Positions 15,792 through 40,640 of a stretch of DNA of 59,896 nucleotides are shown here, one piece after another. Source of the stretch: Thermoanaerobaculia bacterium. Its GTDB lineage: Bacteria; Acidobacteriota; Thermoanaerobaculia; Gp7-AA8. The position numbers and the translations under genes are program-made. Positions within the stretch are counted from its first letter, which is position 1, and every line of letters begins with the position of its first letter. A model generated the notes under the pieces. The model ran no database searches, had not been told where the DNA came from, and worked only from the letters and a program-made list of their open reading frames with translations. Location of the stretch: NCBI GenBank assembly GCA_035544835.1, contig DASZZV010000207.1, positions 1 through 59,896 on the forward strand, written 5' to 3'.

Positions 15792-15816
15792 TTTCCAGAC
15801 GAATCCGTTTTCATGG

Positions 15817-18545: not shown

Positions 18546-18574
18546 GGGAGGGGAGTCTAAGGCAAGGCAAAGGC

Positions 18575-18668
18575 GAATTGTGAATGTTGAATGTTGAATT
18601 TTGAATTGTGAAACCGCCCTTTTTGCCAATTCAACATTCAAAATTCACAACTCAACATTCAAAATCAC
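18575..18668. repeat. heptamer-arm hairpin element (family B, unit GAATGTT/GAATTTT/GAATTGT)
   Basis: Left arm is gaattgt gaatgtt gaatgtt gaatttt gaattgt. The right arm is the imperfect reverse complement, also 7-nt periodic. Loop aaaccgcccttttt gcc. Confidence 0.8.
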
Positions 18669-18862
18669 CTTTGTCCTACGCGGCGGCTGGGGCGCTTGAA
18701 TGGTTTCCCACGGGAATACAATTCTTGACAGGCCCTGTTCCCGATGTTACCTTTTCAGGCCCTTCAAACGGGCGGTAGTGTGTAGTTTGAATTCGACTCT
18801 CCGCAGCGCCTCCTGACTCGTGCCGGGCATGAGTGGGGGTCTGTGATGTTACAGGACGACAA

Positions 18863-19297
18863 ATGCGTACGTATTTTCCGAAGCAGGGTGACATCAAGCC
18901 GCGTTGGTTTGTAATCGACGCGGAAGGACAGGTTCTCGGCCGTCTTTCAGCGGCTGTGGCCAATATTATCTCGGGGAAGGCCAAGCCGACCTACACCCCG
19001 TTTCTCGACACCGGGGACCACGTCATTGTGATCAATGCCGAGAAGATCGGTCTTACCGGCAAGAAGGAAACCGACAAGATGTATCGGCACCACACCGGTT
19101 ATCCGGGTGGACTCAAAGAGAGTGCAGCGCGCTTTGTCCGCGTTGAAAAGCCGGAGCGGATGATCGAAGAGGCCGTTCAGGGAATGATTCCCAAGAATCG
19201 GCTCGGTCGGAAGATGCTGAAGAAGCTCAAGGTGTACCGCGGCTCCCAGCATCCACACGTGGCACAGCAACCAGAAGAATTCACGATCTCCAGGTAA
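18863..19297 (+). CDS. rplM: 50S ribosomal protein L13
   Basis: [28 protein letters not shown].. Confidence 0.95.
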
Positions 19298-19321
19298 GAG
19301 AGAACAGAAGGGGTTTTCAGA

Positions 19322-19708
19322 GTGGCGGAATACTACGGAACAGGCAGAAGAAAGTCCTCGACGGCGCGGGTTCACCTCCGTCAGGGTACGGGTCAGATCA
19401 CGGTCAATCGGCGCAAGTTCGATGAGTACTTTCCGAACGAAGTGCTCAAGATGATCATCAGGCAGCCGCTTTCGCTCACCGAGACAGGCGATCATTTCGA
19501 TATCGTCATCACGGTCGGTGGCGGTGGTCCGAGCGGACAGGCTGGGGCGATTCGCCACGGTATCTCGCGAGCGCTGCTGACCTACAATGTCGAGCTTCGC
19601 AAGCGGCTCAAGAAGGCTGGTCTCCTCACGCGCGATCCGCGTATGAAGGAGCGCAAGAAGTACGGTCAGAAGGGTGCTCGCGCCCGCTTCCAGTTCTCTA
19701 AGCGCTAG
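19322..19708 (+). CDS. rpsI: 30S ribosomal protein S9
   Basis: ..[14 protein letters not shown].. and C-terminal ..[19 protein letters not shown] start. Confidence 0.95.
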
Positions 19709-19754
19709 TCTCATGTTCCGGTTTCTCTAAGTGTTCAAGTGAAGACAGGAGCTC

Positions 19755-19787
19755 CCGAGCGGGCTCCTGTTTTTTTGTTTGGGTTGT
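19755..19787 (+). terminator. rho-independent terminator after rpsI
   Basis: ACAGGAGC-loop-GCTCCTGT followed by TTTTTTT. Confidence 0.8.
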
Positions 19788-19880
19788 GCGATTGTCCGAT
19801 TGCTCGATCGCACGATTTCATGGAGTCCAATACGCGCAATCGCGCACAGAAGTCCGTGACGTAACTACAAGGAGGTTCAT

Positions 19881-20660
19881 TTGGCAGTCTCTATTACGAT
19901 GAAAGAGCTTTTGGAAGCTGGCGTTCACTTCGGTCATCAGACCAAGCGCTGGAATCCGAAGATGAAGAAGTACATCTTCGGCAAGCGCAATGGGATCTAC
20001 ATCATTGACCTGCAGAAGACGCTCAAGCTCTTTAAGGAAGCCTCCGCCTTTATCACCGAGCTGGCCTCCAACGGCAAGCGCATCCTCTTCGTCGGTACGA
20101 AGAGACAGGCCCAGGATGCCATTCTTGAAGAAGCAAACCGCTGCGGCATGTTCTATGTGAACAACCGCTGGCTTGGTGGAACCCTCACCAACTTTACGAC
20201 CGTCCGTAAGTCGATCGAGCGCCTCAAGGAGCTGGAGAGAGCTCTGGCCGACACCGAGAAAGAGATGTCCAAGAAGGAGCGCGCGGCCATGGATCATGAG
20301 CGCGAGAAGCTCCAGAAGAATCTCATCGGAATCCGTGAGATGGACGCCCTGCCTGATGCGCTCTTCGTGATCGACCCGAAGAAAGAGCACATCGCCGTCA
20401 TGGAAGCGCACAAGCTCGGTATTCCGGTCGTTGGAATCGTCGACACGAACTGCGATCCGGAGATGATCGACTACGTCATCCCAGGAAACGACGACGCGAT
20501 TCGCGCCATCAGGCTCTTCACGCAGAAGACTGCCGACTCCGTGCTCGAGGGCTACAACATGGCCGAAGAGACGTTCATCGGAGCGGAAGACAAGCCGGAA
20601 ATGGCCACGCCCGCTCCCGCTGCCGCTGCACCTGAGCCCGTCGCCGTTCCTGTTTCCTAG
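19881..20660 (+). CDS. rpsB: 30S ribosomal protein S2
   Basis: ..[22 protein letters not shown].. TTG start 6 nt after AAGGAGG. Confidence 0.95.
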
Positions 20661-20673
20661 CCGTCGCGCAGCA

Positions 20674-20765
20674 TTGTCATCCTGAGCGAAGCGAAGGATC
20701 TTCGGTGACATGGCAGGATCTCGCCGTGTCACCAGAGATCCTTCGCTCGACGCTCAGGATGACAA
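20674..20765. repeat. family-A hairpin element (GTCATCCTGAG..GAAGGATCT // AGATCCTTC..CTCAGGATGAC)
   Basis: Long imperfect hairpin between rpsB and tsf, with termini TTGTCATCCTGAGCG.. and ..CGCTCAGGATGACAA. Confidence 0.85.
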
Positions 20766-20831
20766 CTCTCTCGATTCTTCCGTACTGCGCTCGCGTGGCG
20801 CGGCCCGAAATTCTCAACCTGGAGTACTGAT

Positions 20832-21770
20832 ATGGCTCAAATTACAGCCGCTCTCGTAAAAGAGCTCCGCGAAAAAACCGGAGCTGGAATGATGGAATGC
20901 AAGTCGGCGCTCACCGAGGCCAATGGTGATGTCGAAGAAGGGGTGAAGGTCCTCCGCAAGAAGGGACTCGCCGCCGCAGGAAAAAAGGCCGGCCGCATTA
21001 CCTCGGAAGGCCTCGTGCAGGCTCATGTCGATGGCACCAGAGCCGTTCTGATCGAGGTCAACTGCGAGACCGACTTCGTCGCCAAGACCGACGAGTTTCG
21101 CGACATGGTCAAACAGATCGGCCAGATCGTCATGGACTCGAAAGTGGAGACAGTCGATGAACTGCTGAAGCTCGACTGGCCAGGTGACGCCGAGGGACAT
21201 ACCGTCGCTCAGGTCGTCTCGCAGAAGATCGCCAAGACCGGCGAGAACATGAGTGTGCGCCGCTTCGTCCGCTATGACGGCGGTCCTGCTCATCACGGTA
21301 TGGGAAGCTACGTGCACGGCAATGGCCGCATCGGCGTGCTAGTCGAAGTCAGTAATGACAGCGTCGACGCCCGCGTCGTGGCCGGCGAGATCGCCCGCGA
21401 CGTCGCCATGCATGTTGCTGCCGCCGAGCCGCGCTTTGTCAAGCGCGACGAGGTCACCGAGAACGATCTGAACACCGAGAAAGAAATCGCCCGCGATCAG
21501 GCCATCAAGTCCGGCAAGCCCGAGGCTGTGGTCGAGAAGATCGTCGCCGGCAAGATGGAGAAGTACTACGGCGAGGCCGTGCTCCTCGAGCAGCCCTACG
21601 TTCGCGACGACAAGACCACCATCACCCAGCTGCTGAAGACCCGCGGGACGGCAGCGAAGGCAAACTTCGACGTGGTCCGTTTCACCCGCTACAAGCTCGG
21701 TGAGGGCATCGAGAAGCCCCAGGGACCCGACTTCGCAACGGAAGTCATGGCCCAGGCAGGATTGAAGTAA
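20832..21770 (+). CDS. tsf: translation elongation factor Ts
   Basis: MAQITAALVKELREKTGAGMMECKSAL.. Confidence 0.95.
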   Translation: MAQITAALVKELREKTGAGMMECKSALTEANGDVEEGVKVLRKKGLAAAGKKAGRITSEGLVQAHVDGTRAVLIEVNCETDFVAKTDEFRDMVKQIGQIVMDSKVETVDELLKLDWPGDAEGHTVAQVVSQKIAKTGENMSVRRFVRYDGGPAHHGMGSYVHGNGRIGVLVEVSNDSVDARVVAGEIARDVAMHVAAAEPRFVKRDEVTENDLNTEKEIARDQAIKSGKPEAVVEKIVAGKMEKYYGEAVLLEQPYVRDDKTTITQLLKTRGTAAKANFDVVRFTRYKLGEGIEKPQGPDFATEVMAQAGLK

Positions 21771-22061
21771 GGATTCAGCACCGAAAGGTTCATGGGAAGG
21801 GCTGGGGGAGCCACTGTCCCACGCGCCAACAAAAAAGGGCGGCTCAAGACCGCCCCCGCCTGGATTCTAGAAGCAACCGAAGGTCACGGCGCAGACCGGC
21901 CTCATTCTTGACCTGCCAAAACACTCGCGCATCCTGAGCCGTTTCCAAATAGAGCAAGAGGGTGTGCTACGCGAAAATTGATGTTTCTGCAGAATGTGTT
22001 TGTCGTCTGTTTATTGCTAGGCTTTGCGGCTCCGTCGCGAAGTTTCGCGAGGGTTTGTCAT

Positions 22062-22103
22062 TACACTCGCTTTGTGGATTCCTACTCGACCGTCCTGAGC
22101 GAG
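22062..22103 (+). repeat. 42-nt direct repeat copy 1 (relic of the 5' end of the 22809 gene)
   Basis: TACACTCGCTTTGTGGATTCCTACTCGACCGTCCTGAGCGAG matches 22797..22838 at 39 of 42 positions. Confidence 0.85.
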
Positions 22104-22139
22104 GGTTAGGCCGACAGGGAGAATGGGAGGATAGACACC

Positions 22140-22691
22140 ATGGCTCGATGGTCACTGGAACCTGGACACACCGCTGCCGAGTTCTGCGTCAGGCACATGA
22201 TGGTCACCCATGTGCGAGGCCATTTCAAGAACGTGCACGGCAGTCTGGAGTTTGATCCGGGTCAGCCGGAGGCGTCCCGGGTCGAGGCCACGATCGACAC
22301 CCCAGGTCTGTGGAGCGGAGAGCCGGGTCGCGATGTCCACCTCCGCGGCCCCGACTTCCTCGACGTCGAGCACTTCCCGGAAATAACCTTCACGAGCCGC
22401 GCAGTGCATCTGATGAGTCCGAATGAGGCGGTTGTCACTGGCGCTCTAACAATCCGAGGGGTCACCAAGGTTGTCGGGCTGGACGTCCACTACTTGGGGC
22501 AGTGGGAAACTCCGTGGTGGGAGGACGGGGTCGACAAGGGTCCCAAGACCCGGGCAGGCTTTGTGGCTACGGCCCGCATAGACCGTCGCGACTTCGGCGT
22601 AAGTTGGAACAGCCCGCTCGCGCGGGGTGGCATTGTTGTCGGCCACCAAGTCCTCATCACGATCGACGCGGAAGCGATTCTTGAATCGTAG
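22140..22691 (+). CDS. YceI-like polyisoprenoid-binding family protein
   Basis: 'W.L.P.HT.AEF.V.HMMVT.VRG.F', 'GAL.TIRGVTK', 'RRDFGV.WN'. GGGAGG SD. Confidence 0.8.
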   Translation: MARWSLEPGHTAAEFCVRHMMVTHVRGHFKNVHGSLEFDPGQPEASRVEATIDTPGLWSGEPGRDVHLRGPDFLDVEHFPEITFTSRAVHLMSPNEAVVTGALTIRGVTKVVGLDVHYLGQWETPWWEDGVDKGPKTRAGFVATARIDRRDFGVSWNSPLARGGIVVGHQVLITIDAEAILES

Positions 22692-22796
22692 AGCGGCCCA
22701 ACAAAGGGATGGAGCAGGCGAGGGGCGTGCTGGCGGAGACGCTGGCGCCGATCAATACGGGGCTGGGCCTTCGTTGTTCGATTCCACGCCGCGGCA

Positions 22797-22838
22797 TACA
22801 CTCGCCTTGTGGATTTCTACTCGACCGTCCTGCGCGAG
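22797..22838 (+). repeat. 42-nt direct repeat copy 2 (covers the start of the nucleotidyltransferase gene)
   Basis: See 22062..22103. Includes the GTG start at 22809. Confidence 0.85.
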
Positions 22839-23297
22839 CTGAGCGACCGGAACATTCGCTTCATTGTTGTCGGCGGGGTCGCCACAGTTCTCCATGGCTA
22901 TGCGCGGCTGACCGTGGATCTCGACCTGGTCGTCGATTTTGCTGGCGAGCATCTGCGAGACGCTCTGGTGGCCCTGACGGCGCTCGGTTTCAAACCGCGC
23001 GTCCCTGTGAACGCGTTGGATTTTGCCGACCCTGCCATACGCCGGGGATGGATCGAGCAGAAAGGCATGATGGTCTTCTCGATGTGGCGAGATGACGAGG
23101 GACTTCCGCTGGTCGTCGATCTTTTTGCCGAAGAGCCTTTTCCTTTTGACGAGATGTTCGACAGGGGCCGAGTGGTATCTGTTGGCGGGCGAGAGATTCG
23201 CATCGCTTCAAGAAAAGACCTGATCACGATGAAACAGAAAGCGGGACGGCCGAAAGATCTCATCGACATCGCGCAATTGGAGCAACTCGATGACTGA
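22809..23297 (+). CDS. nucleotidyltransferase-fold protein (minimal NTase type)
   Basis: 'FIVVGGVATVLHGYARLTVDLDLVV' G-G/S..D.D NTase motif. C-terminal 'K.KAGRPKDLIDI..L'. Confidence 0.65.
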   Translation: MDFYSTVLRELSDRNIRFIVVGGVATVLHGYARLTVDLDLVVDFAGEHLRDALVALTALGFKPRVPVNALDFADPAIRRGWIEQKGMMVFSMWRDDEGLPLVVDLFAEEPFPFDEMFDRGRVVSVGGREIRIASRKDLITMKQKAGRPKDLIDIAQLEQLDD

Positions 23298-23508
23298 GGA
23301 CTGGAGCAGCGGCTGGAGCGACGCCGAGCATCACATCCTCCTGCTCGGTGCGTCGCTGAGCCCTTCGGCGCGTTTCGAGCTTCTGCAGCAGATGCAGGAG
23401 TTCGCCTGCAATGCAGGAGCCTTCCAGCGGGAGATCCAGGCCCGTCTGCTGGCCTCCGATCAGCTCTGGGAAAACAATTCAGAGCCGCCCGAGAAGCGGA
23501 GCGCGTGA
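23290..23508 (+). CDS. hypothetical 72-aa protein, translationally coupled to the NTase gene
   Basis: The ATG overlaps the NTase stop region (ATGACTGA). No recognisable motif. Confidence 0.4.
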
Positions 23509-23539
23509 TATAAATCGCGCCCCGGAGCGACCCGACCGA

Positions 23540-24277
23540 ATGGCTGAAGCGAGAACGCCCACCTACAAGAGAATCATGCTCAAACTCTCAGGCGAAGCCT
23601 TGATGGGAGAGCGTAAGTACGGCATCGATCCCCAGACACTGGCCGACATCGCCGACGAGTTGGTGAGCGTGCAGAAGCTCGGCGTCGAGATCGCCCTCGT
23701 GGTCGGCGGCGGCAATATCTTTCGCGGCGTCACCGCTGCGACCGACGGCATCGACCGCGCCGTTGGGGATCAGATGGGAATGCTGGCCACGGTGATCAAC
23801 TCCCTGGCCATGCAGGATGCCCTGGAACGCCGCGGTGCCATCACGAGAGTCACGACCGCGATCGCCATGCCCGGCGTCGCCGAGTCGTTCATCCGGCGAA
23901 GGGCGATCCGGCACCTCGAGAAAAAACGAATCGTCATCTGTGCCGCCGGCACGGGAAACCCCTACTTCACGACCGACTCCGCCGCCGCTCTGCGTGCCAA
24001 TGAGCTGGGCTGCGAGATTATCTTCAAGGCCACCAAAGTCGATGGCATCTACACCGCTGATCCTCATAAGGATCCCTCGGCAGTCAAGATCCCCATCGCC
24101 ACCTATCAGCAGGTGATCGAGCAACGACTCAATGTCATGGATGCTTCGGCCATCGATCTTGCCCGAGGGAACTCAATTCCCATTTACGTCTTCTCGATGA
24201 AGGAGAAGGGGAACATCTCGAGGGCGGTGCTGGGAGAGAATATCGGATCGATCGTGACCGACAGTCACCCCGCATAA
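23540..24277 (+). CDS. pyrH: UMP kinase
   Basis: ..[31 protein letters not shown].. Internal ATG chosen over the 288-aa read-through. Confidence 0.95.
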
Positions 24278-24299
24278 CAACGCAGCTGGAGGCTTTTCA

Positions 24300-24860
24300 A
24301 TGGACGTGAAGACTCTCGAAAAAGACGCGGAGCGCCGGATGCACGGGGCTCTGGAAGCGCTGCACGGCGAATTCAAATCGCTCCGAACCGGTCGCGCCAC
24401 AACCTCGATGCTGGACGGAATCGTGGTCCCTTACTACGGGACCGACACGCCCCTGGCGCAGGTTGCCAGTCTCTCGGTGCCAGAAGCTTCTCTGATTCTG
24501 GCTACGCCATGGGACAAGACCCTCATCCCGGCCATCGAGAAGGCCATTCGAAGTGCCGAGCTCGGACTCAATCCCGCCAACGACGGTAAGGTCATCAGAA
24601 TCCCGATCCCGCCCCTCACCGAGGAGCGCCGCAAGGAGCTCGTCAAGAAGGCCCACGCCATGTCCGAGGAATCTCGAACGGCCATCCGTCAGGTCCGGCG
24701 TGACGTCAACGACAAGCTGAAGAAGATCGAGAAGGAACATCTCATCTCCCAGGACGAGGAGAAGCGCGGCCTCGATGAGATTCAGAAGATGACCGATAAG
24801 TTCATCAACGAAGTGAATGCCGTGTTGGCGCACAAAGAAGCCGAAGTGATGGAAGTTTGA
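24300..24860 (+). CDS. frr: ribosome recycling factor
   Basis: ..LRTGRATTSMLDGI.V.YYG..TPL.QVA... Confidence 0.95.
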   Translation: MDVKTLEKDAERRMHGALEALHGEFKSLRTGRATTSMLDGIVVPYYGTDTPLAQVASLSVPEASLILATPWDKTLIPAIEKAIRSAELGLNPANDGKVIRIPIPPLTEERRKELVKKAHAMSEESRTAIRQVRRDVNDKLKKIEKEHLISQDEEKRGLDEIQKMTDKFINEVNAVLAHKEAEVMEV

Positions 24861-24867
24861 GGTGGGT

Positions 24868-25034
24868 GGGATTTCGGATTTGGGATTTGGGATTTCGAAT
24901 TTGAAAGAAGAGGCGGAGTTCGAAGGGAATGCTCTTCGCTCAAATTCGAAAATTGGAAGCGACAGCAAACTTGGACCGAAGCAGATCGGGCTTTTTTTAA
25001 ATTCGAAATTCGAAATTCGAAATTCGAAATTTCC
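24868..25034. repeat. heptamer-arm hairpin element (family B, unit GGGATTT/CGAATTT vs AAATTCG)
   Basis: Left arm is gggattt cggattt gggattt gggattt cgaattt. Right arm is (aaattcg)x4 and ends 1 nt before the ispD ATG. An internal alternative 11-bp pairing exists between 24894..24904 and 24940..24950. Confidence 0.8.
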
Positions 25035-25721
25035 ATGAACTGCACCGTGATCATTCCCGCTGCCGGGAGCGGAGTGCGTTTCGGCGGCGAGGTTCCCAAG
25101 CAATACCTTCCCCTTGGCGGCCGCCCTCTCATCGTCTGGACGATCGATGTCTTCTTCCGGCACCCTGCAGTCGAGAGGATCATCGTGGCCGTCTCCGGGG
25201 AGCAGCTGGCGTCGATGCAGGAGATCGTCGATCACAATCGCTGGGGCAACGTGCGTCTGGTGAATGGTGGTGAGACGCGGCAGGATTCTGTCCGCAACGC
25301 CTTGAAGCTGGCGATCAAGTTGGGAGCGGAGTTGGTGGCTATTCATGACAGCGTGCGCCCGCTGTTCGCGGCCGAGGGGCTCGACCCGCTGCTCGAGGCA
25401 GCCTCGCAGGTGGGCGCCTCTCTGCCGGCGCTGCCACTGAGCGACACCATTCATCGTGTTCATGACCAGCAGATCGTTGAGACACTTGATCGCGGCGAGC
25501 TCGTGGCGGCGCAGACACCGCAATGTTTCCGGTCGGGGTTGTTGTCGCAGTCGCTCGATCGGGCCGCGGCCGAGAGCTTTTCGGGCACGGACGAAGCTGG
25601 CGTCTTCGCCCATTATGGTTTTCCCGTACGCGTTCTTCCTGGTGATCCGGGCAACATCAAGGTGACGCGCCCTGAGGACTGGAAGCTCGCCGAAGCACTG
25701 CTGGCCGGGAGAGATGCATGA
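25035..25721 (+). CDS. ispD: 2-C-methyl-D-erythritol 4-phosphate cytidylyltransferase
   Basis: 'VIIPAAGSGVRFG...PKQYL.L.G'. Confidence 0.9.
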   Translation: MNCTVIIPAAGSGVRFGGEVPKQYLPLGGRPLIVWTIDVFFRHPAVERIIVAVSGEQLASMQEIVDHNRWGNVRLVNGGETRQDSVRNALKLAIKLGAELVAIHDSVRPLFAAEGLDPLLEAASQVGASLPALPLSDTIHRVHDQQIVETLDRGELVAAQTPQCFRSGLLSQSLDRAAAESFSGTDEAGVFAHYGFPVRVLPGDPGNIKVTRPEDWKLAEALLAGRDA

Positions 25722-26206: not shown

Positions 26207-26235
26207 CGGCCGCCTTTTCCGTAGACTCGCGCTCC

Positions 26236-27747
26236 ATGACAGTTCGAGTGCGGTTCGCCCCCTCGCCTACGGGTCACCTCCATGTCGGTGGTGCCAGGAC
26301 GGCAATTTTCAACTGGCTCTTCGCCCGCCATCACGACGGTACATTCATCATTCGGGTCGAAGACACCGACGTGGCTCGTTCCACGCGCGAGTCGGAGGAG
26401 ATGGTCCTCGAGGATCTGCGCTGGCTGGGTCTGCTGTGGGACGAAGGTCCGGATGTCGGCGGCCCTCACGGCCCCTATCGTCAGTCCGAGCGCATGAAGC
26501 TGTACGCCGACTCTGCCGACGAGCTGCTGGCGAAGGGCATCGCCTATCGATGCTTCTGCGATGAGGCCACGCTGGAAGCGAAGCGCTCGGCGGCCGAAGA
26601 AGCGGGACGTCCGCCTCACTACGACCTCACCTGCTACCAGCTTCCTGCTGAAGAGATCCAACGGCACGTCGCTGCAGGAGACCTCTACGCGCTTCGATTC
26701 CATGTCCCGAAAGAGAAGGACCAGGCTGCCGGCGATGTGACCATTCACGACCTCATTCGGGGCGCGGTCACCTGGCGCGGCGACTCGCTCGGCGACTTCA
26801 TCATCCTCCGCTCCGACGGCATGCCGATCTACAACTTCTGCGTGGTCGTCGACGATCACGACATGAGGATCACGCACGTCATTCGCGCTGAAGAGCATCT
26901 GACCAACACGCATCGCCAGGTGCTGATCTACAGGGCACTGGGTTGGGAAGTTCCTCAATTCGCGCACGTCTCGCTGATCCTGGGGCAGGACCGCTCCAAG
27001 CTCTCGAAACGTCACGGCGCGACATCCGTCGCCGCCTACGCCGCGGACGGATTTCTGCCGGAGGCGATGGTCAACTACTTGACGCTGCTGGGCTGGACGC
27101 CGCCCGACGGGCAGGAGATCTTCTCCCGCGACTCCGCGGCCCGGGAGTTCTCCCTCGAGCGCGTCCATGCGGCTGCGGCTGTATTCGATCCGCAGAAATT
27201 CGCCTGGCTCAACGGACAATATATTCAGAAAACGGCCAACATCGATCTGCTCGACGCGGTTGCGCTTGGTCTGTCGGCGCCTGGCTGGTTGCGCGAGCGG
27301 TCAGCCGCGGCCGACGAGTGGATCGTCGAAGCGATCGAGCTCGTGAAGAAAGGCGCTACGCAGGTGACCGGGATCGCGCTCCAGCTGGCGTTCTTTTTCG
27401 AATGGAATGCGGCCGCAGTGGTGCGGGAGCCCGCCAACGCTGAGGTGCTGGCCGATCCGGGAGCTCTAGGCCTGATTCAGGCTCTTGCCGAGGATCTGGC
27501 CGCCAACGGCGCACCGCGTGATTCTGACCAGTATCACGCGCTTGCCGACCGGCTGAAGCAGACCACAGGCCGTAAAGGCAAAGGGCTCTTCATGCCGATT
27601 CGGATCGCGACGATGGGGAGCACGCACGGGCCGGAACTGCAGCGCGCTCTTCCGCTGATGGAGCGCGGAAGCGAGATTCCCGAATTCAAAATTGTCGCTC
27701 CGCTGGAGAGGACACGCCAGATGCTCGCCGAGGCTTCGAGATCGTGA
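26236..27747 (+). CDS. gltX: glutamate--tRNA ligase
   Basis: 'RFAPSPTGHLHVGGARTA' HIGH motif and 'KLSKRHG' KMSKS motif. Confidence 0.95.
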   Translation: MTVRVRFAPSPTGHLHVGGARTAIFNWLFARHHDGTFIIRVEDTDVARSTRESEEMVLEDLRWLGLLWDEGPDVGGPHGPYRQSERMKLYADSADELLAKGIAYRCFCDEATLEAKRSAAEEAGRPPHYDLTCYQLPAEEIQRHVAAGDLYALRFHVPKEKDQAAGDVTIHDLIRGAVTWRGDSLGDFIILRSDGMPIYNFCVVVDDHDMRITHVIRAEEHLTNTHRQVLIYRALGWEVPQFAHVSLILGQDRSKLSKRHGATSVAAYAADGFLPEAMVNYLTLLGWTPPDGQEIFSRDSAAREFSLERVHAAAAVFDPQKFAWLNGQYIQKTANIDLLDAVALGLSAPGWLRERSAAADEWIVEAIELVKKGATQVTGIALQLAFFFEWNAAAVVREPANAEVLADPGALGLIQALAEDLAANGAPRDSDQYHALADRLKQTTGRKGKGLFMPIRIATMGSTHGPELQRALPLMERGSEIPEFKIVAPLERTRQMLAEASRS

Positions 27748-28838
27748 AGCAGCAGGCCGGCTCGCTGGCCGGATGGGCTATCGACGCAGCGTATGGCATC
27801 CTCAAACCGCTGCTGTTTCGTCTTGACGCCGAGAATGCTCACGAGTTGCTGGCGGCGCAGATCGAGAGATGGCAGAGCACCCCGCCTTTTCTTCGAGCCT
27901 TGCGCGCAGTTTGTGGAGGGCCTGAGCGTGGAACCGAGGTGCTCGGACTTCATTTTCGAAATCCTCTCGGCATCGCGGCCGGTTTCGACAAGAACGGTCG
28001 GATGATCGCCTTTCTCGCAGAGCTCGGCTTTGGCTTCGTCGAGGTCGGCACCGTCACCCTTCGGCCCCAGCCCGGCAATCCCCGTCCACGCATGTTTCGT
28101 TTTCCGGAGGCGGGCGCGCTCGTGAATCGACTCGGATTCAACAATGAGGGCGCCGCTGCTCTCGTTCGCCGTGTGGAGAGCTACAAGGCGGGGTCGGCTG
28201 ATCCCGTTCCAGTCTTCGTCAACATCGGGAAGAACGCTACCGTGCCGATCGAGGAGGCGAGCTCCGATTACCTTGCCTGCTATGAGGTCGTCGGGCCGGT
28301 TGCCGACGCGATCGTGGTCAACGTGTCGTCGCCGAATACGGCATCGCTGCGCGATCTTCAGACAGCGGCACATTTGACGAAAATCCTCGACGTGCTGAGA
28401 TCGGCCCGTTCCCGCCGCGGCTTCAATCACCCCATCATTCTGAAGATCGCACCGGATCTAACCGATGAGCAGCTCGCGGCAATTGTCGAGGTGTCCCTGT
28501 CAGCCGCTGATGCCATTACCGCCACGAACACAACGATTGACAGGACCTCTCTACCGGAGGCGTCAGGCCTGCAGGGCGGACTCTCGGGAAGGCCGCTTCG
28601 CGAACGCGCCACCGGTATGATGCGCCGGCTCCGCCAGTTGGCCGGGCCGGACTACCCGTTGATCGGCGTCGGCGGGATTTTCGATGCTGCAGACGCGCGT
28701 GAGAGGATTGCCGCCGGCGCGAACCTCATTGAGGCTTACACCGGATTCATCTATCAGGGCCCGATGTTCGCGTCCCGAATCGTCGACGGTCTCGAACCGA
28801 AACGCCCTCACATGAAAAAAGAGCGAGACTACGCATGA
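27744..28838 (+). CDS. pyrD: dihydroorotate dehydrogenase (quinone), class 2
   Basis: 'FRNPLGIAAGFDKNG', 'GFGFVEVGTVT..PQ.GNP.PR.FR', 'NRLGFNN.G'. GTGA overlap with gltX. Confidence 0.9.
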   Translation: MKQQAGSLAGWAIDAAYGILKPLLFRLDAENAHELLAAQIERWQSTPPFLRALRAVCGGPERGTEVLGLHFRNPLGIAAGFDKNGRMIAFLAELGFGFVEVGTVTLRPQPGNPRPRMFRFPEAGALVNRLGFNNEGAAALVRRVESYKAGSADPVPVFVNIGKNATVPIEEASSDYLACYEVVGPVADAIVVNVSSPNTASLRDLQTAAHLTKILDVLRSARSRRGFNHPIILKIAPDLTDEQLAAIVEVSLSAADAITATNTTIDRTSLPEASGLQGGLSGRPLRERATGMMRRLRQLAGPDYPLIGVGGIFDAADARERIAAGANLIEAYTGFIYQGPMFASRIVDGLEPKRPHMKKERDYA

Positions 28839-29548
28839 TTATCTTTGGAGCAAATCCGGTCACGGAAGCGATTCGATCCCGCGCCGACCGCATTCGATAC
28901 ATCGCCGTCGCGAAATCCCTCGGCGGAAAGCTGCAGCGCCTGGTCGAGGAGGCCCGTGAAGCTGGGGTGGCCATTCGCTTTCTCGACACTCCGCAACTCG
29001 ACCGGATGACGAACAAGCAGGTTCACAACGGAGTCGCGGCCGACATCGCCGAAGCGGCGCTGCGCGATCTGCAGGCAATCATCGCCGACGGAGGTGAGGA
29101 GCCGGTCGTCTTCATCCTCGACGGAATTCAGGATCCTCAAAACCTTGGCGCGATCATCCGGGTGGCCGATTGCTTTGGTGTGACAGCCGTGGTCGTTCCG
29201 GAACATGACAGCGCCAGTGTCACCGGCGCCGCGGTCAAGGCCTCGGCGGGAGCGACAGAGTGGGTTCCCGTTTGCCAGGTGACGAATCTGTCGAGGACTA
29301 TCGAGGAGTTGAAGGCAGACGGTTTCTGGATCTACGGAGCGGAAGCCGCGGGCGATCCGGTGTCGGACGTCGATTTTCGCGGCAAGGTAGTGATCGTGCT
29401 GGGCAGCGAGGGCAAAGGCATTCGCCGGAATGTGCTGGAGCACTGCGATCGCCGCATCGCCATCCCGATGAAAGGTCATGTCGATTCACTCAACGTGGCT
29501 GCTGCGGCGGCTGTGATTGCCTACGAGGTTCAGCGCCAGAGGCGATGA
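28835..29548 (+). CDS. SpoU/TrmH-family 23S rRNA (guanosine-2'-O)-methyltransferase (RlmB-like)
   Basis: 'LDGIQDPQNLGAIIR', 'GSEGKGIR', 'IPM.G.V.SLNV..A'. ATGA overlap with pyrD. Confidence 0.85.
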   Translation: MIIFGANPVTEAIRSRADRIRYIAVAKSLGGKLQRLVEEAREAGVAIRFLDTPQLDRMTNKQVHNGVAADIAEAALRDLQAIIADGGEEPVVFILDGIQDPQNLGAIIRVADCFGVTAVVVPEHDSASVTGAAVKASAGATEWVPVCQVTNLSRTIEELKADGFWIYGAEAAGDPVSDVDFRGKVVIVLGSEGKGIRRNVLEHCDRRIAIPMKGHVDSLNVAAAAAVIAYEVQRQRR

Positions 29549-31533
29549 TCGAGATTCTTCTCGCGGCGTTCGTTCCTTGCGCCTTGGCAGGTTTTCTTGC
29601 CGTTGCGGCGCGTGACGTCGACCTCCGCAGGGCAACCCTGTTCTGGTTCATCCCTCTGACTCTTCTCTGGTTCTCCCCCTGCTGGCTCACGGGTTCTTCC
29701 CCGGCAGCATTCGATTACCTCGCGCAGGATTTGTATCCCTGGAAGGCGCTCGTACAAAACGGCTTCAGAGCCGGAAATGCTCTTCTCAGCGATCCGCCGC
29801 TGCAGTTCATCCCCTGGCGCGAAGTCGCCCGCATTTCGATCCTGCACGGTGAAATGCCGTATCTGAATCCCTTTGCAGGTGCTGGATCGATCTTGTGGGC
29901 GAACCCTCAGGCGGCGGTGCTGTTTCCTTTGACGCTCCTTGGGCTGCCCTTCTCATCATTCGCCTGGCCGCTGTTTTCAGCGACGGCAAAAGTGCTTTGC
30001 GGTCTCATGGCCTCCTATCTGTTTCTCAGGAGTGAGTCACTCTCCCAGCACGCGGCGATCTTTGGCGCGATCAGCTACGGCTTCTGTGCTTTCACAATCG
30101 CTTTTCTACTTTTTCCGCACACGAACGTCACGGTGCTGTTGCCGCTCCTTCTGTGGGGCATTGTCCAGAGCCGGCGAAGCTGGCGAGGAGCGGCGGCGTT
30201 CGCCGTGATCCTCTTTGTCATGCTCATCGGCGGACATCCCGAATCGGTGGTTCACATCGCGCTTCTGGCAATCCCGTTCGCAGTGGCGAGGGCGTGGGGA
30301 GATCGAGCGGCCTTACGGCGAATCTTTGCCGGCGGTCTGGTCGGATGCGCTCTGGCCGGGCCTGCTCTGATCCCATTCGCGGCCACGCTTCGGACCGGAG
30401 AGCGCCTGGAACGAATCGAGCGGCAGCGCGATCTGGCTGCACCGCCCCATCTGACCGTGGCGAATCTCGCCGGGTTCATCGCTCCCGCTCTTCTGTCGGA
30501 TCGAAGGTCACCGGACGCGGAAGAGAATTTCAATGAGGTGGCAACCCAGTATGTGGGCGTCATTGCGTTCATTCTGGCTATCGTCGCCATCGTGCGGGAG
30601 GCGCGCCGGCTTCGATTCTGGTGGGTGTCGTTTCTCTGTCTGCTGCCGCTCGCCTTCCGCTCTCCCCTTCTCGACTCGATTCCACTCGTCAATCTCGTTA
30701 TGAATGGCCGTATCCGGGTCATTCTCGGGTTCATCGTCGCCGTTCTCGCGGCGCAAGGCTTCGATGCCGTCATCAGGAAACGGGTGTGGCGGCTTGCGCT
30801 GCCGCTTCTGGCATTCGCCGATCTCGCTTTGCTGCTGGTGGCCTACAACACGCCGGTCGCGCCTGAGTTTTACTACGCTGCCACACCCGGATTGCGCTTT
30901 CTTGCCTCCCAGCCGGGACCGCTTCGATTCTGTGGGGTCGGTGGGGTCCTTCTCCCCAACACCGGCGCGATGTGGCGTCTGGAAGATGTTGGCGTGCACG
31001 ACCCGGTTGCGTTCGAGCAGTATCTGCAACTCCTCGAGAGGGGAGGTTACGATCGGCGCTTCTACTTCAACCTCTTTCATCGCATTCCGCCTCGGCCCCT
31101 TCTCGACCTGTTGGACGTCCGCTACGTGGTCGCACCGCCCGGTTACCGGTCGTCGGCGCTGCCGCTGGTCTACCGAGGTTCGGACGTGTCGATCTATTTC
31201 AACCGCGATGCCTCGGCAATTCACGCGACGAGCTCGCTGACTTTCGCGAAGAGGAGGATCGGGACCAATCACCTGTCGATCGCGGTGAAGAGTGTGTCGG
31301 CGGGGGAGATGTGGATCTCGCAGGCCGGGCTTCCGGGGTGGAGCCTCCTCAAAGACGGTCGTCATTGGCCGCTCACAGCGTCGCCGCTTCTGCGATGGAG
31401 GGTTCCTCCAGGCCCGAGCACCTTCGAGCTCAGTTACCTGCCTCCGGGATTGTCAGCGGGCTGCTGGCTGTTTGCCCTTGCTGGCGCCGCACTCCTGCTG
31501 ATGCTCGTTCGGCCCTCTTCGCAATCGGAATAA
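29545..31533 (+). CDS. YfhO-family (GT-C-like) polytopic membrane protein, paralog of 7157..9484
   Basis: Start at MIEILLAAF.. (ATGA overlap with the rlmB-like stop); the 757-aa ORF is a read-through. Shares the 'GHPES' motif and C-terminal architecture with the 7157 gene. Confidence 0.7.
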   Translation: MIEILLAAFVPCALAGFLAVAARDVDLRRATLFWFIPLTLLWFSPCWLTGSSPAAFDYLAQDLYPWKALVQNGFRAGNALLSDPPLQFIPWREVARISILHGEMPYLNPFAGAGSILWANPQAAVLFPLTLLGLPFSSFAWPLFSATAKVLCGLMASYLFLRSESLSQHAAIFGAISYGFCAFTIAFLLFPHTNVTVLLPLLLWGIVQSRRSWRGAAAFAVILFVMLIGGHPESVVHIALLAIPFAVARAWGDRAALRRIFAGGLVGCALAGPALIPFAATLRTGERLERIERQRDLAAPPHLTVANLAGFIAPALLSDRRSPDAEENFNEVATQYVGVIAFILAIVAIVREARRLRFWWVSFLCLLPLAFRSPLLDSIPLVNLVMNGRIRVILGFIVAVLAAQGFDAVIRKRVWRLALPLLAFADLALLLVAYNTPVAPEFYYAATPGLRFLASQPGPLRFCGVGGVLLPNTGAMWRLEDVGVHDPVAFEQYLQLLERGGYDRRFYFNLFHRIPPRPLLDLLDVRYVVAPPGYRSSALPLVYRGSDVSIYFNRDASAIHATSSLTFAKRRIGTNHLSIAVKSVSAGEMWISQAGLPGWSLLKDGRHWPLTASPLLRWRVPPGPSTFELSYLPPGLSAGCWLFALAGAALLLMLVRPSSQSE

Positions 31534-31636
31534 GTTGCCGCTTGCGCCCCGTTAGCCTCTCTGCTATAAGGCACAGTTCTCCGCGTCTCTCCGGCAGAGA
31601 GTGGAGGTCTGTCTCTTTTTTTCTTTGAATAAGTAA

Positions 31637-31711
31637 GCTGGCGTAGCTCAGTGGTAGAGCAGCTGATTTGTAATCAGCAGGTCGCGGGTTCGATCCCCAT
31701 CGCCAGCTCCA
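31637..31711 (+). tRNA. tRNA-Thr (anticodon TGT)
   Basis: Cloverleaf by hand: acceptor GCTGGCG/CGCCAGC, anticodon loop TTTGTAA, encoded CCA. One C-A mismatch in the T stem (GCGGG/CCCAT). Confidence 0.85.
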
Positions 31712-31714
31712 GAA

Positions 31715-31788
31715 AGGCGGATGTTGGATGTTCGATGTTAGAGATTTGCAGGTTCTAGCATCCACCATCAAGCATCCAACATCCGCCT
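31715..31788. repeat. heptamer-arm hairpin element (family B, unit GGATGTT)
   Basis: Left arm aggc ggatgtt ggatgtt cgatgtt; right arm ..catcaagcatccaacatccgcct is complementary. Confidence 0.8.
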
Positions 31789-31791
31789 CTC

Positions 31792-31878
31792 GGAGAGATT
31801 GCTGAGCGGCCAAAGGCAGCAGACTGTAAATCTGCCGGACTTCGTCCTTCGCAGGTTCGAATCCTGCTCTCTCCACCA
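31792..31878 (+). tRNA. tRNA-Tyr (anticodon GTA)
   Basis: Acceptor GGAGAGA/TCTCTCC, anticodon loop CTGTAAA, long variable arm, encoded CCA. Confidence 0.9.
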
Positions 31879-31887
31879 GTTAAAAAC

Positions 31888-31939
31888 AGATGTTGGATGG
31901 TAGATGTCAGTTCGAAGCGGTTGATTGGATCTGACATCT
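31888..31939. repeat. heptamer-arm hairpin element (family B, unit AGATGTT/GGATGGT/AGATGTC)
   Basis: Three tandem heptamers, then a 9-bp stem AGATGTCAG (31902..31910) / CTGACATCT (31931..31939). Confidence 0.65.
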
Positions 31940-31953
31940 GGGACCTGAAGTAA

Positions 31954-32028
31954 GCGGGAGTAACTCAGTGGTAGAGTCACAGCCTTCCAAGCTGTTGGTC
32001 GCGGGTTCGATCCCCGTCTCCCGCTCCA
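31954..32028 (+). tRNA. tRNA-Gly (anticodon TCC)
   Basis: Acceptor GCGGGAG/CTCCCGC, anticodon loop CTTCCAA, encoded CCA. Confidence 0.9.
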
Positions 32029-32029
32029 A

Positions 32030-32128
32030 GTTGAGACGAATTGAGAATTGAGAATTGACAATTGAGAAAGAAGGCAGCGTGAGGATGGGGTTTTATTTCT
32101 CAATTCCCCATTTTTCAATTCTCAATTC
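32030..32128. repeat. heptamer-arm hairpin element (family B, unit GAATTGA)
   Basis: Left arm ttgagac gaattga gaattga gaattga caattga gaaag. The right arm tttctcaatt..tcaattctcaattc pairs as 10 + 14 bp. Confidence 0.8.
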
Positions 32129-32143
32129 CGCGATAAGCGGTAA

Positions 32144-32218
32144 GCCCTCTTAGCTCAGGGGTAGAGCACGTCCTTGGTAAGGACGGGGTCACGAGTTCAA
32201 CTCTCGTAGAGGGCTCCA
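32144..32218 (+). tRNA. tRNA-Thr (anticodon GGT)
   Basis: Acceptor GCCCTCT/AGAGGGC, anticodon loop TTGGTAA, encoded CCA. Confidence 0.9.
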
Positions 32219-32230
32219 TTGAATAGAAGC

Positions 32231-32312
32231 GAATTGAGAATTGAGAAAGAGAGAATTGAGAAATAGGAGCCGTTTTTCTTTCTCAATTCTCAATTCTCAA
32301 TTCTCAATTCTC
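32231..32312. repeat. heptamer-arm hairpin element (family B, unit GAATTGA)
   Basis: Left arm (gaattga)n..gagaattgagaaa; right arm tttctcaattctc(aattctc)n. Pairs as 13 + 15 bp around a bulge. Ends just before the rpmG SD. Confidence 0.85.
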
Positions 32313-32325
32313 CGAAGGAGTAGCT

Positions 32326-32484
32326 ATGGCAGCAGTCAGGGAAATCATCTCGCTTCAGTGCACGGAATGTAAGCGTCGGAATTACTCGACGACTAAGAAC
32401 AAGAAGAAGACCACGGACAAGGTCGAGAAGAAGAAGTTCTGCCGTTACGACCGCAAGCATACGGTTCATCGCGAAGCCAAGTGA
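32326..32484 (+). CDS. rpmG: 50S ribosomal protein L33
   Basis: Hand-translated 52 aa: MAAVREIISLQCTECKRRNYSTTKNKKKTTDKVEKKKFCRYDRKHTVHREAK. GAAGGAG SD. Below the ORF-track length cutoff. Confidence 0.9.
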   Translation: MAAVREIISLQCTECKRRNYSTTKNKKKTTDKVEKKKFCRYDRKHTVHREAK

Positions 32485-32507
32485 CGCAAGCCGCGTGAGC
32501 GGCGAGC

Positions 32508-32544
32508 GTCATCCTGAGGAGCGCGAAGCGCGACGAAGGATCTT
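32508..32544. repeat. family-A element, left arm only (half element)
   Basis: GTCATCCTGAGGAGCGCGAAGCGCGACGAAGGATCTT is nearly identical to the left arm at 40641..40678. No matching right arm before tRNA-Trp. Confidence 0.75.
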
Positions 32545-32570
32545 CAACGAGGCAGCAGTTGATCTAACAC

Positions 32571-32647
32571 AGGCCAGTAGCTCGAACTGGTAGAGCAGCG
32601 GTCTCCAAAACCGCGGGTTGGGGGTTCGAATCCCTCCTGGCCTGCCA
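32571..32647 (+). tRNA. tRNA-Trp (anticodon CCA)
   Basis: Acceptor AGGCCAG/CTGGCCT, anticodon loop CTCCAAA, encoded CCA. Confidence 0.9.
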
Positions 32648-32708
32648 ATTCGTTGATCGGGTTCTACGACGAGCAACGGGTCACGAGCAACGAGGTAACG
32701 GGGTAAAC

Positions 32709-32939
32709 ATGGAACTGGTAGAAACACCGAAGAAATGGTGGCTTGGGATGGGCGATTTCTATCGCGAGACCAAGTCGGAGATGAAGAAGGTTTCCTGGCC
32801 CTCGCGCCACGAGGTGGTCTCGACGACGACGGTCGTGATTGTTGCCACGATTATGTTCGGTGTCTATCTCTGGGTCTGTGACGTGACCTTCTACAAAATC
32901 ATCGACTACATCTTCAGGCGGTTCGGGATGGGTGCATAA
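32709..32939 (+). CDS. secE: preprotein translocase subunit SecE
   Basis: 'FYRETKSEMKKVSWPSR.EV' plus a single TM segment. Canonical position before nusG. Confidence 0.9.
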   Translation: MELVETPKKWWLGMGDFYRETKSEMKKVSWPSRHEVVSTTTVVIVATIMFGVYLWVCDVTFYKIIDYIFRRFGMGA

Positions 32940-32943
32940 CCTT

Positions 32944-33531
32944 ATGGTAGAGACGGGCAGCAAGCAGTGGTACATCGTCCACACTTACTCGGGCTTCGAA
33001 GAGCGGGTGAAGGAGAACCTCGAGCAGCGCATCGAGGCGCTGGGTATGCGCGAGAAGTTCGGCGAGGTGCGCATTCCCACCGAGACCCTCATCGAGATGA
33101 AGGGCGGGAAAAAGAAGGAAGTGCAGCGTAAGTTCTTTCCCGGCTACATCCTTCTGGAGATGGAGATGTCCGATGACGGCTGGCATCTCGTCAAGAACAC
33201 TCCCAAGGTCACCGGCTTTGTCGGTACGGGGAAGAAGCCGACGCCGCTGACGCAGGAAGAGGTCGACTCGATCCTCAACCAGGTCGTGTCGACCAAAGAG
33301 AAGCCGAAGCCCAAGCACGTTTACGAGCACGGCGAGCACGTGCGGATCATCGACGGTCCGTTCACGAACTTCACCGGCGTGGTCGAGGACGTCAATGTCG
33401 ACCGTAGCACGCTGCGGGTCATGGTTACGATCTTTGGCCGGTCCACCCCGGTGGAGCTCGATTTTCTTCAGGTGGCGAAGTTCGACCCGTCGGAAGAAGC
33501 GGCCGCGGGCGGAGCAGGAAAGGGTAGATAA
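32944..33531 (+). CDS. nusG: transcription termination/antitermination factor NusG
   Basis: '[14 protein letters not shown]', 'FPGYILLEM', KOW 'V.I.DGPF..F.G.V'. ATG 32944 preferred; GTG 32932 is possible. Confidence 0.95.
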
Positions 33532-33537
33532 ACAGGA

Positions 33538-33633
33538 TTGTCATCCTGAGCCGCAGCGAAGGATCTCCAGTGGCAGGATCTGAATTCAGATCGTACGCAC
33601 CTTGAGATCCTTCGCTGCGGCTCAGGATGACAA
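33538..33633. repeat. family-A hairpin element
   Basis: TTGTCATCCTGAGCCGCAGCGAAGGATCT ... AGATCCTTCGCTGCGGCTCAGGATGACAA. The centre holds the palindrome GATCTGAATTCAGATC. Confidence 0.85.
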
Positions 33634-33657
33634 GAACTCGAGATAAGGGTTAAGAAC

Positions 33658-34083
33658 ATGGCTAAAAAAGTTACCGGATACATCAAGCTCCAGATCCCCG
33701 CCGGCAAGGCTACGCCTGCTCCTCCCGTGGGACCGGCCCTGGGCCAGCATGGCGTGAATATCATGGAGTTCTGCAAGACCTTCAATGCCCGGACTCAGAA
33801 GGATGACGGACTCATCATCCCGGTCGTGATCACGGTGTTTCAGGATCGCTCCTTTACCTTCATCACCAAGACGCCGCCGGCAGCCGTTCTTCTTCTCCGC
33901 GCCGCGGGGATCCAGAAGGGTTCGGGCACGCCCAATAAGCTGAAGGTCGGAAAGGTCACGAAGAAACAGGTCGAGGACATCGCCAAGCTGAAGATGCCGG
34001 ATCTGAATGCCGCCTCGATCGAGACCGCGGTCAAGACCGTCGAAGGCACGGCGCGCTCCATGGGTTTGGAAGTCATCGGCTGA
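33658..34083 (+). CDS. rplK: 50S ribosomal protein L11
   Basis: [40 protein letters not shown].. Confidence 0.95.
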
Positions 34084-34093
34084 CGCCGCCCGA

Positions 34094-34183
34094 AATTGAG
34101 AATTGAGAATTGAGAATTGAGAAATGAAGAGGCGAGACTGAGGAAGTTTTTCTTTCTCAATTCTCAATTCTCAATTCTCAATT
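34094..34183. repeat. heptamer-arm hairpin element (family B, unit AATTGAG x4), 31-bp perfect stem
   Basis: 34094..34124 (aattgag x4 + aaa) is the exact reverse complement of 34153..34183. The loop is 28 nt. Confidence 0.9.
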
Positions 34184-34273
34184 GAGTTCAACCGGTCCGA
34201 AATGCTCGGACTCAATATCAACAGACGTAGGAGATGGGTCTCGCGATTCATCGTCTGCACTACGGAGGTAAAA

Positions 34274-36001: not shown

Positions 36002-36098
36002 CATCCTGAGGAGTGCGGAGCACGACGAAGGATCTTTGGTGGTCAACAAGCTCACCGCGAGTGTCACCAAAGATCCTTCGCTTCGCTCAGGATGACAA
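36002..36098. repeat. family-A hairpin element
   Basis: TCATCCTGAGGAGTGCGGAGCACGACGAAGGATCT ... GAGTGTCACCAAAGATCCTTCGCTTCGCTCAGGATGACA. The right arm is identical to that at 40701..40739. Preceded by the short hairpin ATTTGC-AGGCGGC-ggta-GCCGCC-GCAAAT. Confidence 0.85.
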
Positions 36099-36328: not shown

Positions 36329-40624
<4,296 letters not shown>

Positions 40625-40640
40625 CGCGAGCAAAGCGAGC

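Follow-up and report, generated by a model that had tools for sequence, protein, structure and literature searches.

How can the two arms of a hairpin stay complementary to each other while each arm stays repetitive? This question is raised by a 59.9-kb contig (here, the window) of a metagenome-assembled genome from a soil bacterium of the Thermoanaerobaculia (Acidobacteriota). At seven loci, labeled E1 to E7 in coordinate order (18575..18668, 24868..25034, 31715..31788, 31888..31939, 32030..32128, 32231..32312, and 34094..34183), tandem arrays of a 7-nt unit face each other as inverted pairs. Here, we interpret these elements as palindromic heptanucleotide microsatellites, that is, dispersed and dispensable noncoding repeats of the short tandemly repeated repetitive (STRR) or long simple sequence repeat kind. 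Slippage would keep their periodicity, and either a hairpin-dependent process or selection would keep their pairing. We assign this reading a probability of about 0.5.

All seven loci were found again in the sequence, with the coordinates and units that an earlier, sequence-only reading had given for them. Its consensus, RATKKNG, fits most of the units but not GATGTTC and AATTTGA. Tandem Repeats Finder detected 12 period-7 arrays in the window, with 3.0 to 5.4 copies throughout, and all 12 lie inside the seven loci. A lag scan of the window returned nine arrays of period 7, compared with 1, 2, 0, 1, 0, 0, and 0 arrays at periods 5, 6, 8, 9, 10, 11, and 12, so that 7 is the sole enriched period within 5 to 12 nt. 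The arms are 25 to 40 nt long and enclose G+C-rich, nonrepetitive loops of 12 to 35 nt (80 nt in E2). Six of the seven elements fold far better than dinucleotide shuffles (z scores of -4.9 to -7.9), with stems of 25 to 40 bp. The edge of E6 is 100% identical in an independent Logan assembly and related elements recur in many independent assemblies; thus, the elements are not assembly artifacts. The proposal that they form one family with a shared architecture is supported.

Seven spacers of the tRNA-rpmG-secE-nusG-rplKAJL-rpoB cluster were compared in 14 Thermoanaerobaculia-like genomes. Loci or genomes compared with the window carry L-numbers, and L082/L207 is a sister genome. Occupancy was patchy, and each of the seven spacers was empty in some of the 14 genomes. 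Occupied sites of the cluster hold a hairpin of 70 to 110 nt, whereas the hairpin-free tRNA spacers measure 3 to 24 nt (L002, L028, L005, L011, and L214) and the hairpin-free nusG-rplK spacers measure 18 to 53 nt (L001, L004, L005, L028, L208, L212, and L214). The elements are discrete insertions of 70 to 170 nt in spacers that are otherwise 3 to 53 nt long, and they are dispensable. At the E6 site, between tRNA-Thr and rpmG, an element judged orthologous by its flanks is present in four genomes (the window, L207, L001, and L005), and the spacer is 20 to 35 nt long in six others. In L208 (approximately 2800 to 2890), the hairpin arms at this site repeat with period 6 (CGAAAG) instead of 7.

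Turnover is also evident between close relatives. The sister genome L082/L207, whose NusG is 96% identical and whose DNA is 81 to 94% identical to the window, has heptamer hairpins in all four tRNA spacers, and three other spacers have swapped repeat family between the two genomes. The nusG-rplK spacer holds the palindrome GTCATCCTGAGC...GAAGGATC in the window and a heptamer hairpin in L082/L207. The rplK-rplA spacer holds E7 in the window and a GTCATCC-type palindrome in the sister genome, and the rplL-rpoB spacer shows the reverse, with the GTCATCC-type palindrome in the window and the heptamer hairpin in L082/L207. In the frr-ispD spacer of L207 (1706-2053), a 115-amino-acid open reading frame (ORF) with no Pfam match stands in place of E2. 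L214 and L215 have identical NusG proteins and approximately 96% identical flanks, yet they carry different heptamer elements between rplK and rplA (CCAGTGG and AGCTCTC, respectively). Unit families are common to related genomes, partly at different spacers; the AATGTTG type, for instance, occurs in E1 and in three other spacers of L210. Seven elements were counted in 60 kb of the window and seven in 20 kb of L207, and both the units and their copy numbers vary among the window, L207, and L210.

A second palindromic family, with the core GTCATCCTGAGCGAAGCGAAGGATC, was noted in the window at 20676-20747, 33538-33633, 36026-36116, and 40629-40750, as three exact copies plus variants. These palindromes lie in operon spacers and trade places with heptamer hairpins in sister genomes; no description of the family was found in the searched literature. 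Other long inverted repeats in the window, at 389-616, 7019-7115, and 10787-11028 (arms of 55, 32, and 81 nt), belong to different families. CAC/ACC-rich repeats with periods 9 and 15 at 15632-16271 are probably coding, for a His/Thr/Gly-rich stretch.

A slippage signature, which the sequence-only reading had proposed to look for, was found between two near-identical strains. L210 and L211, from two samples, are 99.8% identical over 4.3 kb and differ only by a substitution, a 1-base indel, and a single exact TTCTCAA unit within the right arm of a hairpin. This hairpin is the E7 orthologue, with AATTGAG units, in the rplK-rplA spacer; L210 has five units in the right arm and L211 has four, and each strain has four in the left arm. 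No strain-level polymorphism was seen among L082 to L085 at 99.9 to 100% identity.

The pairing of the arms was analyzed in an unbiased census of 97 period-7 arrays from the window and related loci, comprising 36 adjacent pairs, with a match defined as an inverted unit distance of at most 2. In agreement with the expected covariation of the unit between arms, 26 of the 36 adjacent pairs matched, versus 16% of random pairs. The ten nonmatching pairs are arms of neighboring elements, and the census held no element whose arms have unrelated units. Shared units are more frequent among arrays at one locus than among arrays at different loci.

The unit itself changes between relatives. The AATTGAG of E5 and E6 in the window is AATTGAA in their L207 counterparts, and the E6 orthologues in L001 and L005 use GGATTGA. 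Orthologous elements still pair after changes on both arms; RNAalifold on the four E6 orthologues yielded 30 consensus pairs, 10 of which had changes on both sides. Over longer times, all units of both arms change together, so that elements remain periodic and complementary even when their loops and flanks can no longer be aligned. The earlier claim that the two arms are homogenized together does not always hold: the slippage indel affected one arm only, and arm-specific variants exist in E2 and in the L207 counterpart of E4. The arms of E2 do not use one variant; the left arm is GGATTTS and the right arm, as its reverse complement, is GAATTTC, giving a periodic G.U or G.T pair (G.U on the plus strand). 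In the L207 counterpart of E4, GATGTCA in the left arm opposes GATCTCA (reverse complement) in the right arm, with a periodic G.G mismatch. An exact mirror register of the arms was not borne out: complementarity was 0.80, compared with 0.77 after a 7-nt shift, which is a weak signal. The arms are arrays of one unit and not exact mirror images.

The architecture extends beyond the window. In 270 kb from 35 Acidobacteriota rplK loci, 73 period-7 arrays were found, compared with 8, 9, 1, and 0 arrays at periods 5, 6, 8, and 9. Firmicutes-like loci (25 loci, 191 kb) contained no period-7 array, and 20 loci from other taxa (125 kb) contained 8, including some from Nitrospirota and Desulfuromonadales. 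The inverted-heptamer architecture with other units is common across Acidobacteriota, with lineage-specific units such as GGCTCTT, AGTGCTG, AGCTGNC, CGGGACT, and GGGGATT. The last of these forms hairpins in the acidobacterial locus L040 (2778-2863 and 6206-6327) and is the G-quadruplex-forming Nostoc unit in PMC4692102. A metagenome scan with (AATTGAR)x3 recovered 209 period-7 arrays and about 30 hairpin pairs. The pattern is not taxon specific: its contigs spanned 27 to 71% G+C, and most hits were single arrays. The use of this contig set was limited to providing a second sample for chirality and context.

Several properties of the arms bear on whether the elements act as RNA or as DNA. In two sets of hairpins, from the window, L001 to L080, L207, and L087 to L166, the 5' arm contained more G than C in 23 of 29 (P = 0.002) and 23 of 27 cases (P = 0.0003). 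Arm order in a palindrome is identical on the two strands; the bias is therefore a strand-independent chirality, which the direction of transcription or replication cannot explain, and orientation relative to transcription was dropped as a test for the same reason. One speculative idea is that the C-rich arm, being transcribed second, may never be exposed to Rho. Mismatches on the sense strand comprised 39 would-be G.U and 32 A.C, besides 57 transversion mismatches, and thus gave no overall G.U over A.C asymmetry as a sign of selection at the RNA level. E2 and E5 fold 10 to 27 kcal/mol better on the sense strand, and E1 and E3 fold better on the opposite strand. Stop codons in all three frames were considered as a unit property, which holds for AATTGAG but fails for the other units.

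It had been claimed that no CRISPR, REP (repetitive extragenic palindromic), MITE (miniature inverted-repeat transposable element), or terminator model known to the earlier reading predicts such arms. The defining features of all four are indeed missing, but the architecture itself has precedents in Xanthomonas, Geobacter, and cyanobacteria. CRISPR arrays consist of direct repeats of 23 to 50 nt with unique spacers, whereas the units here are 7 nt long and contiguous, in arrays that form inverted pairs. REP, BIME, and REPIN sequences are imperfect palindromes of 20 to 40 nt with a conserved GTAG or CGTC tetranucleotide at one end; inspection of the flanks and ends of every element here revealed no shared terminal tetranucleotide. 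A MITE was rejected since no direct repeat flanks any element and filled and empty sites in relatives show no target-site duplication. Intrinsic terminators have a short G+C-rich stem and then a U tract, whereas the arms here are approximately 31 nt long with a mean G+C content of 0.43, and T-rich tails were present after 1 of 29 and 0 of 27 hairpins. No T tract comes after any of the elements in the window. A terminator scan flagged canonical terminators elsewhere in the window, e.g., at 19741-19774, and none of E1 to E7. In Rfam, tRNAs alone passed the gathering threshold; at E values up to 1, just subthreshold eukaryotic miRNA-precursor models appeared, which represent generic long hairpins and are meaningless. 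What was found instead are the features of heptanucleotide tandem-repeat hairpins, namely, head-to-tail 7-nt units in at least 2 to 3 copies, intergenic location, inverted same-unit pairs near enough to each other for a stem-loop, and many copies varying between relatives.

REP, BIME, and REPIN sequences are likewise extragenic palindromes of similar size that are lineage specific, mainly downstream of genes, gained and lost between relatives, and cotranscribed within operons, and REP hairpins can shield the mRNA upstream of them from 3' exonucleases. However, REPs are not tandem periodic, and they have two marks, a conserved head (GTAG or CGTC) and a link to RAYT transposases, that were not seen in the approximately 60 kb of genome covered here. 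Correia/NEMIS and ERIC elements are insertions that fold into long transcript hairpins, which are cut by RNase III or RNase E, and RNase cleavage of the transcript hairpin is the effect that we would expect for the heptamer elements as well. Correia/NEMIS and ERIC elements differ in that their terminal inverted repeats are defined, their targets show TA duplications, their internal sequence is conserved, and they lack periodicity. The STRR units of cyanobacteria (CCCCAGT, TTGGTCA, and CAACAGT) resemble the present ones in being tandem, 7 nt long, intergenic or intercistronic, hairpin capable, and present in many copies per genome. The phylum and the units differ, and cyanobacterial arrays are mostly single, whereas those in the window are all paired. 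Hairpins formed by 7-bp STRR repeats lie between hupS and hupL, and a role in transcript stability or translational coupling was proposed for them (PMC2670836), and the title of Vioque 1997, as listed in PMC2858038, points to a copy in an RNase P RNA gene.

In Xanthomonas, approximately 185 arrays of the heptamer GGGAATC, mostly of four units, occur per genome with a strong intergenic bias, and 70 to 75 array pairs per genome are in convergent orientation and capable of forming stem-loops (Rehm et al. 2015, PMC4692102). Divergent spacers are underrepresented, array length and sequence vary extensively at the same loci between close relatives, and no function was found (PMC4692102). The elements described here are likewise inverted, intergenic, and variable between relatives, and the metagenome set also avoids divergent spacers; however, the G-tract-rich unit of Xanthomonas forms G-quadruplexes, which AATTGAG and GATGTTG cannot. 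In Geobacter metallireducens, class 3 sites consist of five tandem MTYCTGA heptanucleotides paired on opposite strands, with eight pairs in the genome (Aklujkar et al. 2009, PMC2700814). They are intergenic and intercistronic, e.g., between proB and proA, and were read by the authors as sites of a global regulator (IHF/HU) (PMC2700814). The likeness lies in opposite-strand pairs of tandem heptanucleotides in spacers; the unit is different, and the Geobacter work was done without comparative or evolutionary analysis (PMC2700814). More generally, many prokaryotes have heptanucleotide repeats as their most abundant long simple repeats, and polymerase slippage favored at 7 nt was proposed (Mrazek 2007, as cited in PMC4679880 and PMC4692102). 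None of the named unit sequences (CCCCAGT, TTGGTCA, CAACAGT, GGGAATC, and MTYCTGA) matches AATTGAG, GATGTTG, AATGTTG, or GATTTSG, and a literature search with literal sequences returned nothing relevant. The architecture is thus shared with a known but unexplained kind of repeat and the unit sequences are not, and Acidobacteriota are a fourth phylum for that kind.

All seven elements of the window are intergenic, between annotated genes or tRNAs, and the adjoining ORFs are housekeeping genes. E1 has the units GAATTGT, GAATGTT, and GAATTTT in arms at 18575-18612 and 18628-18665, and its stem reaches 18566-18675 (-39.8 kcal/mol; z = -6.4, against dinucleotide shuffles here and below). It lies in the divergent spacer between ubiE (minus strand, start near 18545) and rplM (plus strand). 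E2, with five copies of GGATTTS on the left, five of AAATTCG on the right, and the 80-nt loop between them, occupies the whole frr-ispD spacer up to the ispD ATG at 25035 (-67.3 kcal/mol; z = -6.4). E7, with 4.5 copies of AATTGAG per arm and 31 of 31 bases complementary, is the most perfect member and lies between the rplK stop and a conserved rplA leader (-49.0 kcal/mol; z = -7.4). An exact look-up of the RplK sequence from the window retrieved no record.

The remaining four elements fill the four spacers of a cluster of tRNA-Thr, tRNA-Tyr, tRNA-Gly, tRNA-Thr, and rpmG. E3, with three GGATGTT units, fills the spacer from tRNA-Thr(tgt) to tRNA-Tyr (-43.7 kcal/mol; z = -7.9). E4, between tRNA-Tyr and tRNA-Gly, has GATGTYR units, a residual stem of 10 bp, and approximately 1.5 units in its right arm; its fold is weak (-19.2 kcal/mol; z = -0.6), and a better-preserved heptamer element occupies the same site in L207. 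On these grounds, E4 is a decayed member. E5, between tRNA-Gly and tRNA-Thr(ggt), and E6, between tRNA-Thr(ggt) and the rpmG ribosome-binding site, share the unit GAATTGA (-42.1 kcal/mol with z = -4.9 and -42.7 kcal/mol with z = -5.6, respectively), and the right arm of E5 is partly degenerate. The left arm of E5 (32038-32072) pairs better with the right arm of E6 (32276-32310), at 34 of 35 positions, than with its own right arm, and the inner arms of E5 (32094-32128) and E6 (32231-32265), which flank tRNA-Thr(ggt), are mutually complementary. Long-range alternative stems enclosing tRNA-Thr(ggt) are therefore possible.

Many bacteria have tuf between tRNA-Thr and rpmG. In the window, tuf is absent between tRNA-Thr(ggt) and rpmG (32219-32326); rpmG directly follows the tRNA cluster, and E6 abuts its ribosome-binding site. 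Upstream of rplA, a noncoding block at 34205-34260 (L082, 5250-5310), ...ACGTAGGAGAYGGG...CGTCTGCACTACGGAGG, is kept between relatives and has no match in Rfam. It is probably the L1 autoregulatory leader, and rplA itself probably begins downstream of the ORF ATG at 34202. The rplL-rpoB leader at 36130-36330 (L207, 13185-13370), CCGGTCCGGAAAGGGGGGGAG.GGCCCTTTCC..., is also strongly conserved and lies downstream of a variable hairpin element. For the metagenome set, a rough ORF heuristic placed 26 of 27 hairpins outside long ORFs and classed their flanks as convergent (9), codirectional (11), divergent (1), and unresolved (6).

How such elements might be maintained can be outlined as follows. 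Slipped-strand mispairing, with its general 7-nt bias in prokaryotes, would renew the periodicity. The arms could be kept complementary in either of two ways: hairpin-templated strand switching, i.e., quasi-palindrome correction, for which any register would serve given that the arms are periodic, or selection for fold-back. In a transcript, the insert would fold into a 25- to 40-bp stem-loop and draw its flanks together, so that highly expressed operons could tolerate it between their tRNAs and cistrons. These stems would be expected RNase III substrates and barriers to 3' exonucleases, which we take as consequences and not as the reason for their existence.

Several observations weigh against the microsatellite reading. 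The arms remain complementary even between relatives too diverged for their loops and flanks to be aligned, a point at which a purely neutral element would have lost its pairing; selection, or a templating process that is so far hypothetical, must therefore act. The window and the sister genome hold some hairpin in every spacer of the tRNA-rpmG-nusG-rplKAJL-rpoB cluster, so a hairpin could be wanted there. On the sense strand, E2 and E5 have much greater stability. Slippage does not predict the strand-independent chirality (23/29 and 23/27), and the spread of unit families into new spacers is left unexplained. In addition, the one-unit polymorphism is a single case from short-read metagenome assemblies.

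The main rival holds that the elements are selected RNA stem-loops that punctuate operons, as REP-like 3' protection, RNase III sites between tRNAs and cistrons, a 5' stabilizer of the rpmG mRNA, or "I-shaped" attenuators lacking a U tract, their periodicity being a mutational by-product. We regard it as a tentative possibility, on balance somewhat unlikely. Compensatory double changes in orthologues and pairing that lasts over long divergence speak for it, but pairing selection alone does not maintain the periodicity of the arms. Hairpins saturate the cluster spacers of two sister genomes, a lost element is replaced by another hairpin family in the sister genome, and four genomes have kept an element between tRNA-Thr and rpmG; nevertheless, every site is empty in several relatives, and E4 is decaying in both sister genomes. 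The rplL-rpoB spacer of Escherichia coli, with its attenuator and RNase III site, counts for this view, whereas the missing U tract (1/29 and 0/27) counts against it, and the genome does have canonical terminators. Elements tend to lie downstream of genes (9 convergent and 11 codirectional versus 1 divergent flank in the metagenome set), yet E1 lies in a divergent promoter region. The sense-strand advantage of E2 and E5 (10 to 27 kcal/mol) and the proposal that cyanobacterial 7-bp-repeat hairpins stabilize transcripts or couple translation (PMC2670836) favor it, but G.U is not favored over A.C (39 versus 32) and transversion mismatches (57) are frequent.

Discrete presence and absence, together with replacement at the same site, would also suit nonautonomous mobile elements of the REPIN or MITE type, copied by a hairpin-specific enzyme acting in trans (a RAYT or an IS200/IS605-type Y1 transposase) with the arrays as recognition arms. 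Replacement could also result from homologous recombination between strains, and we consider such mobility doubtful. In its favor are the recurrence of unit families at different spacers in different genomes, such as the AATGTTG type in E1 and three L210 spacers, a nonrepeat inner segment, TTTTTCTTTCTC, common to E6 and E7, and the more frequent sharing of units within than between loci; Logan contigs that break inside arrays are also expected for multicopy sequence. However, there is no target-site duplication, conserved terminal tetranucleotide (GTAG/CGTC), or conserved loop, several unit variants coexist in one genome, and no transposase was seen adjoining any element in about 60 kb of genome, in which no systematic search was made. 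A further proposal, made for the paired heptanucleotide sites of Geobacter by Aklujkar et al. (PMC2700814), is that such arrays are sites for a periodic DNA- or RNA-binding protein, a "global regulator" or IHF/HU. Strictly periodic spacing and a lineage-specific unit repertoire are compatible with it, but a single genome holds at least four unit variants in 16 kb, there is no limit to how units vary from lineage to lineage, copy number varies freely, the 7-bp period does not match the helical repeat, and sites lie between tRNA genes and inside operons. We thus consider a binding protein very improbable.

Beyond the preferred reading as microsatellites, a bolder one would make the elements a distinct class of self-renewing palindromic microsatellites, present in several phyla and with fixed chirality. 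A dedicated hairpin-dependent mechanism, either an enzyme or templated repair in any register, would spread and pair them, and cells would use them as interchangeable operon RNA stem-loops. This version seems unlikely to us.

In practice, short-read assemblies are broken by heptamer hairpins, which could also be misannotated as small RNAs or terminators. Inverted, hairpin-forming heptamer pairs had been noted earlier in three phyla without explanation. According to the searched literature, the comparative facts obtained here, namely, orthologous sites with and without an element, a polymorphism of one unit between near-identical strains, change of both arms in concert, family replacement, and chirality, are new to heptamer hairpins. 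With them, the joint upkeep of complementarity and periodicity becomes directly testable.

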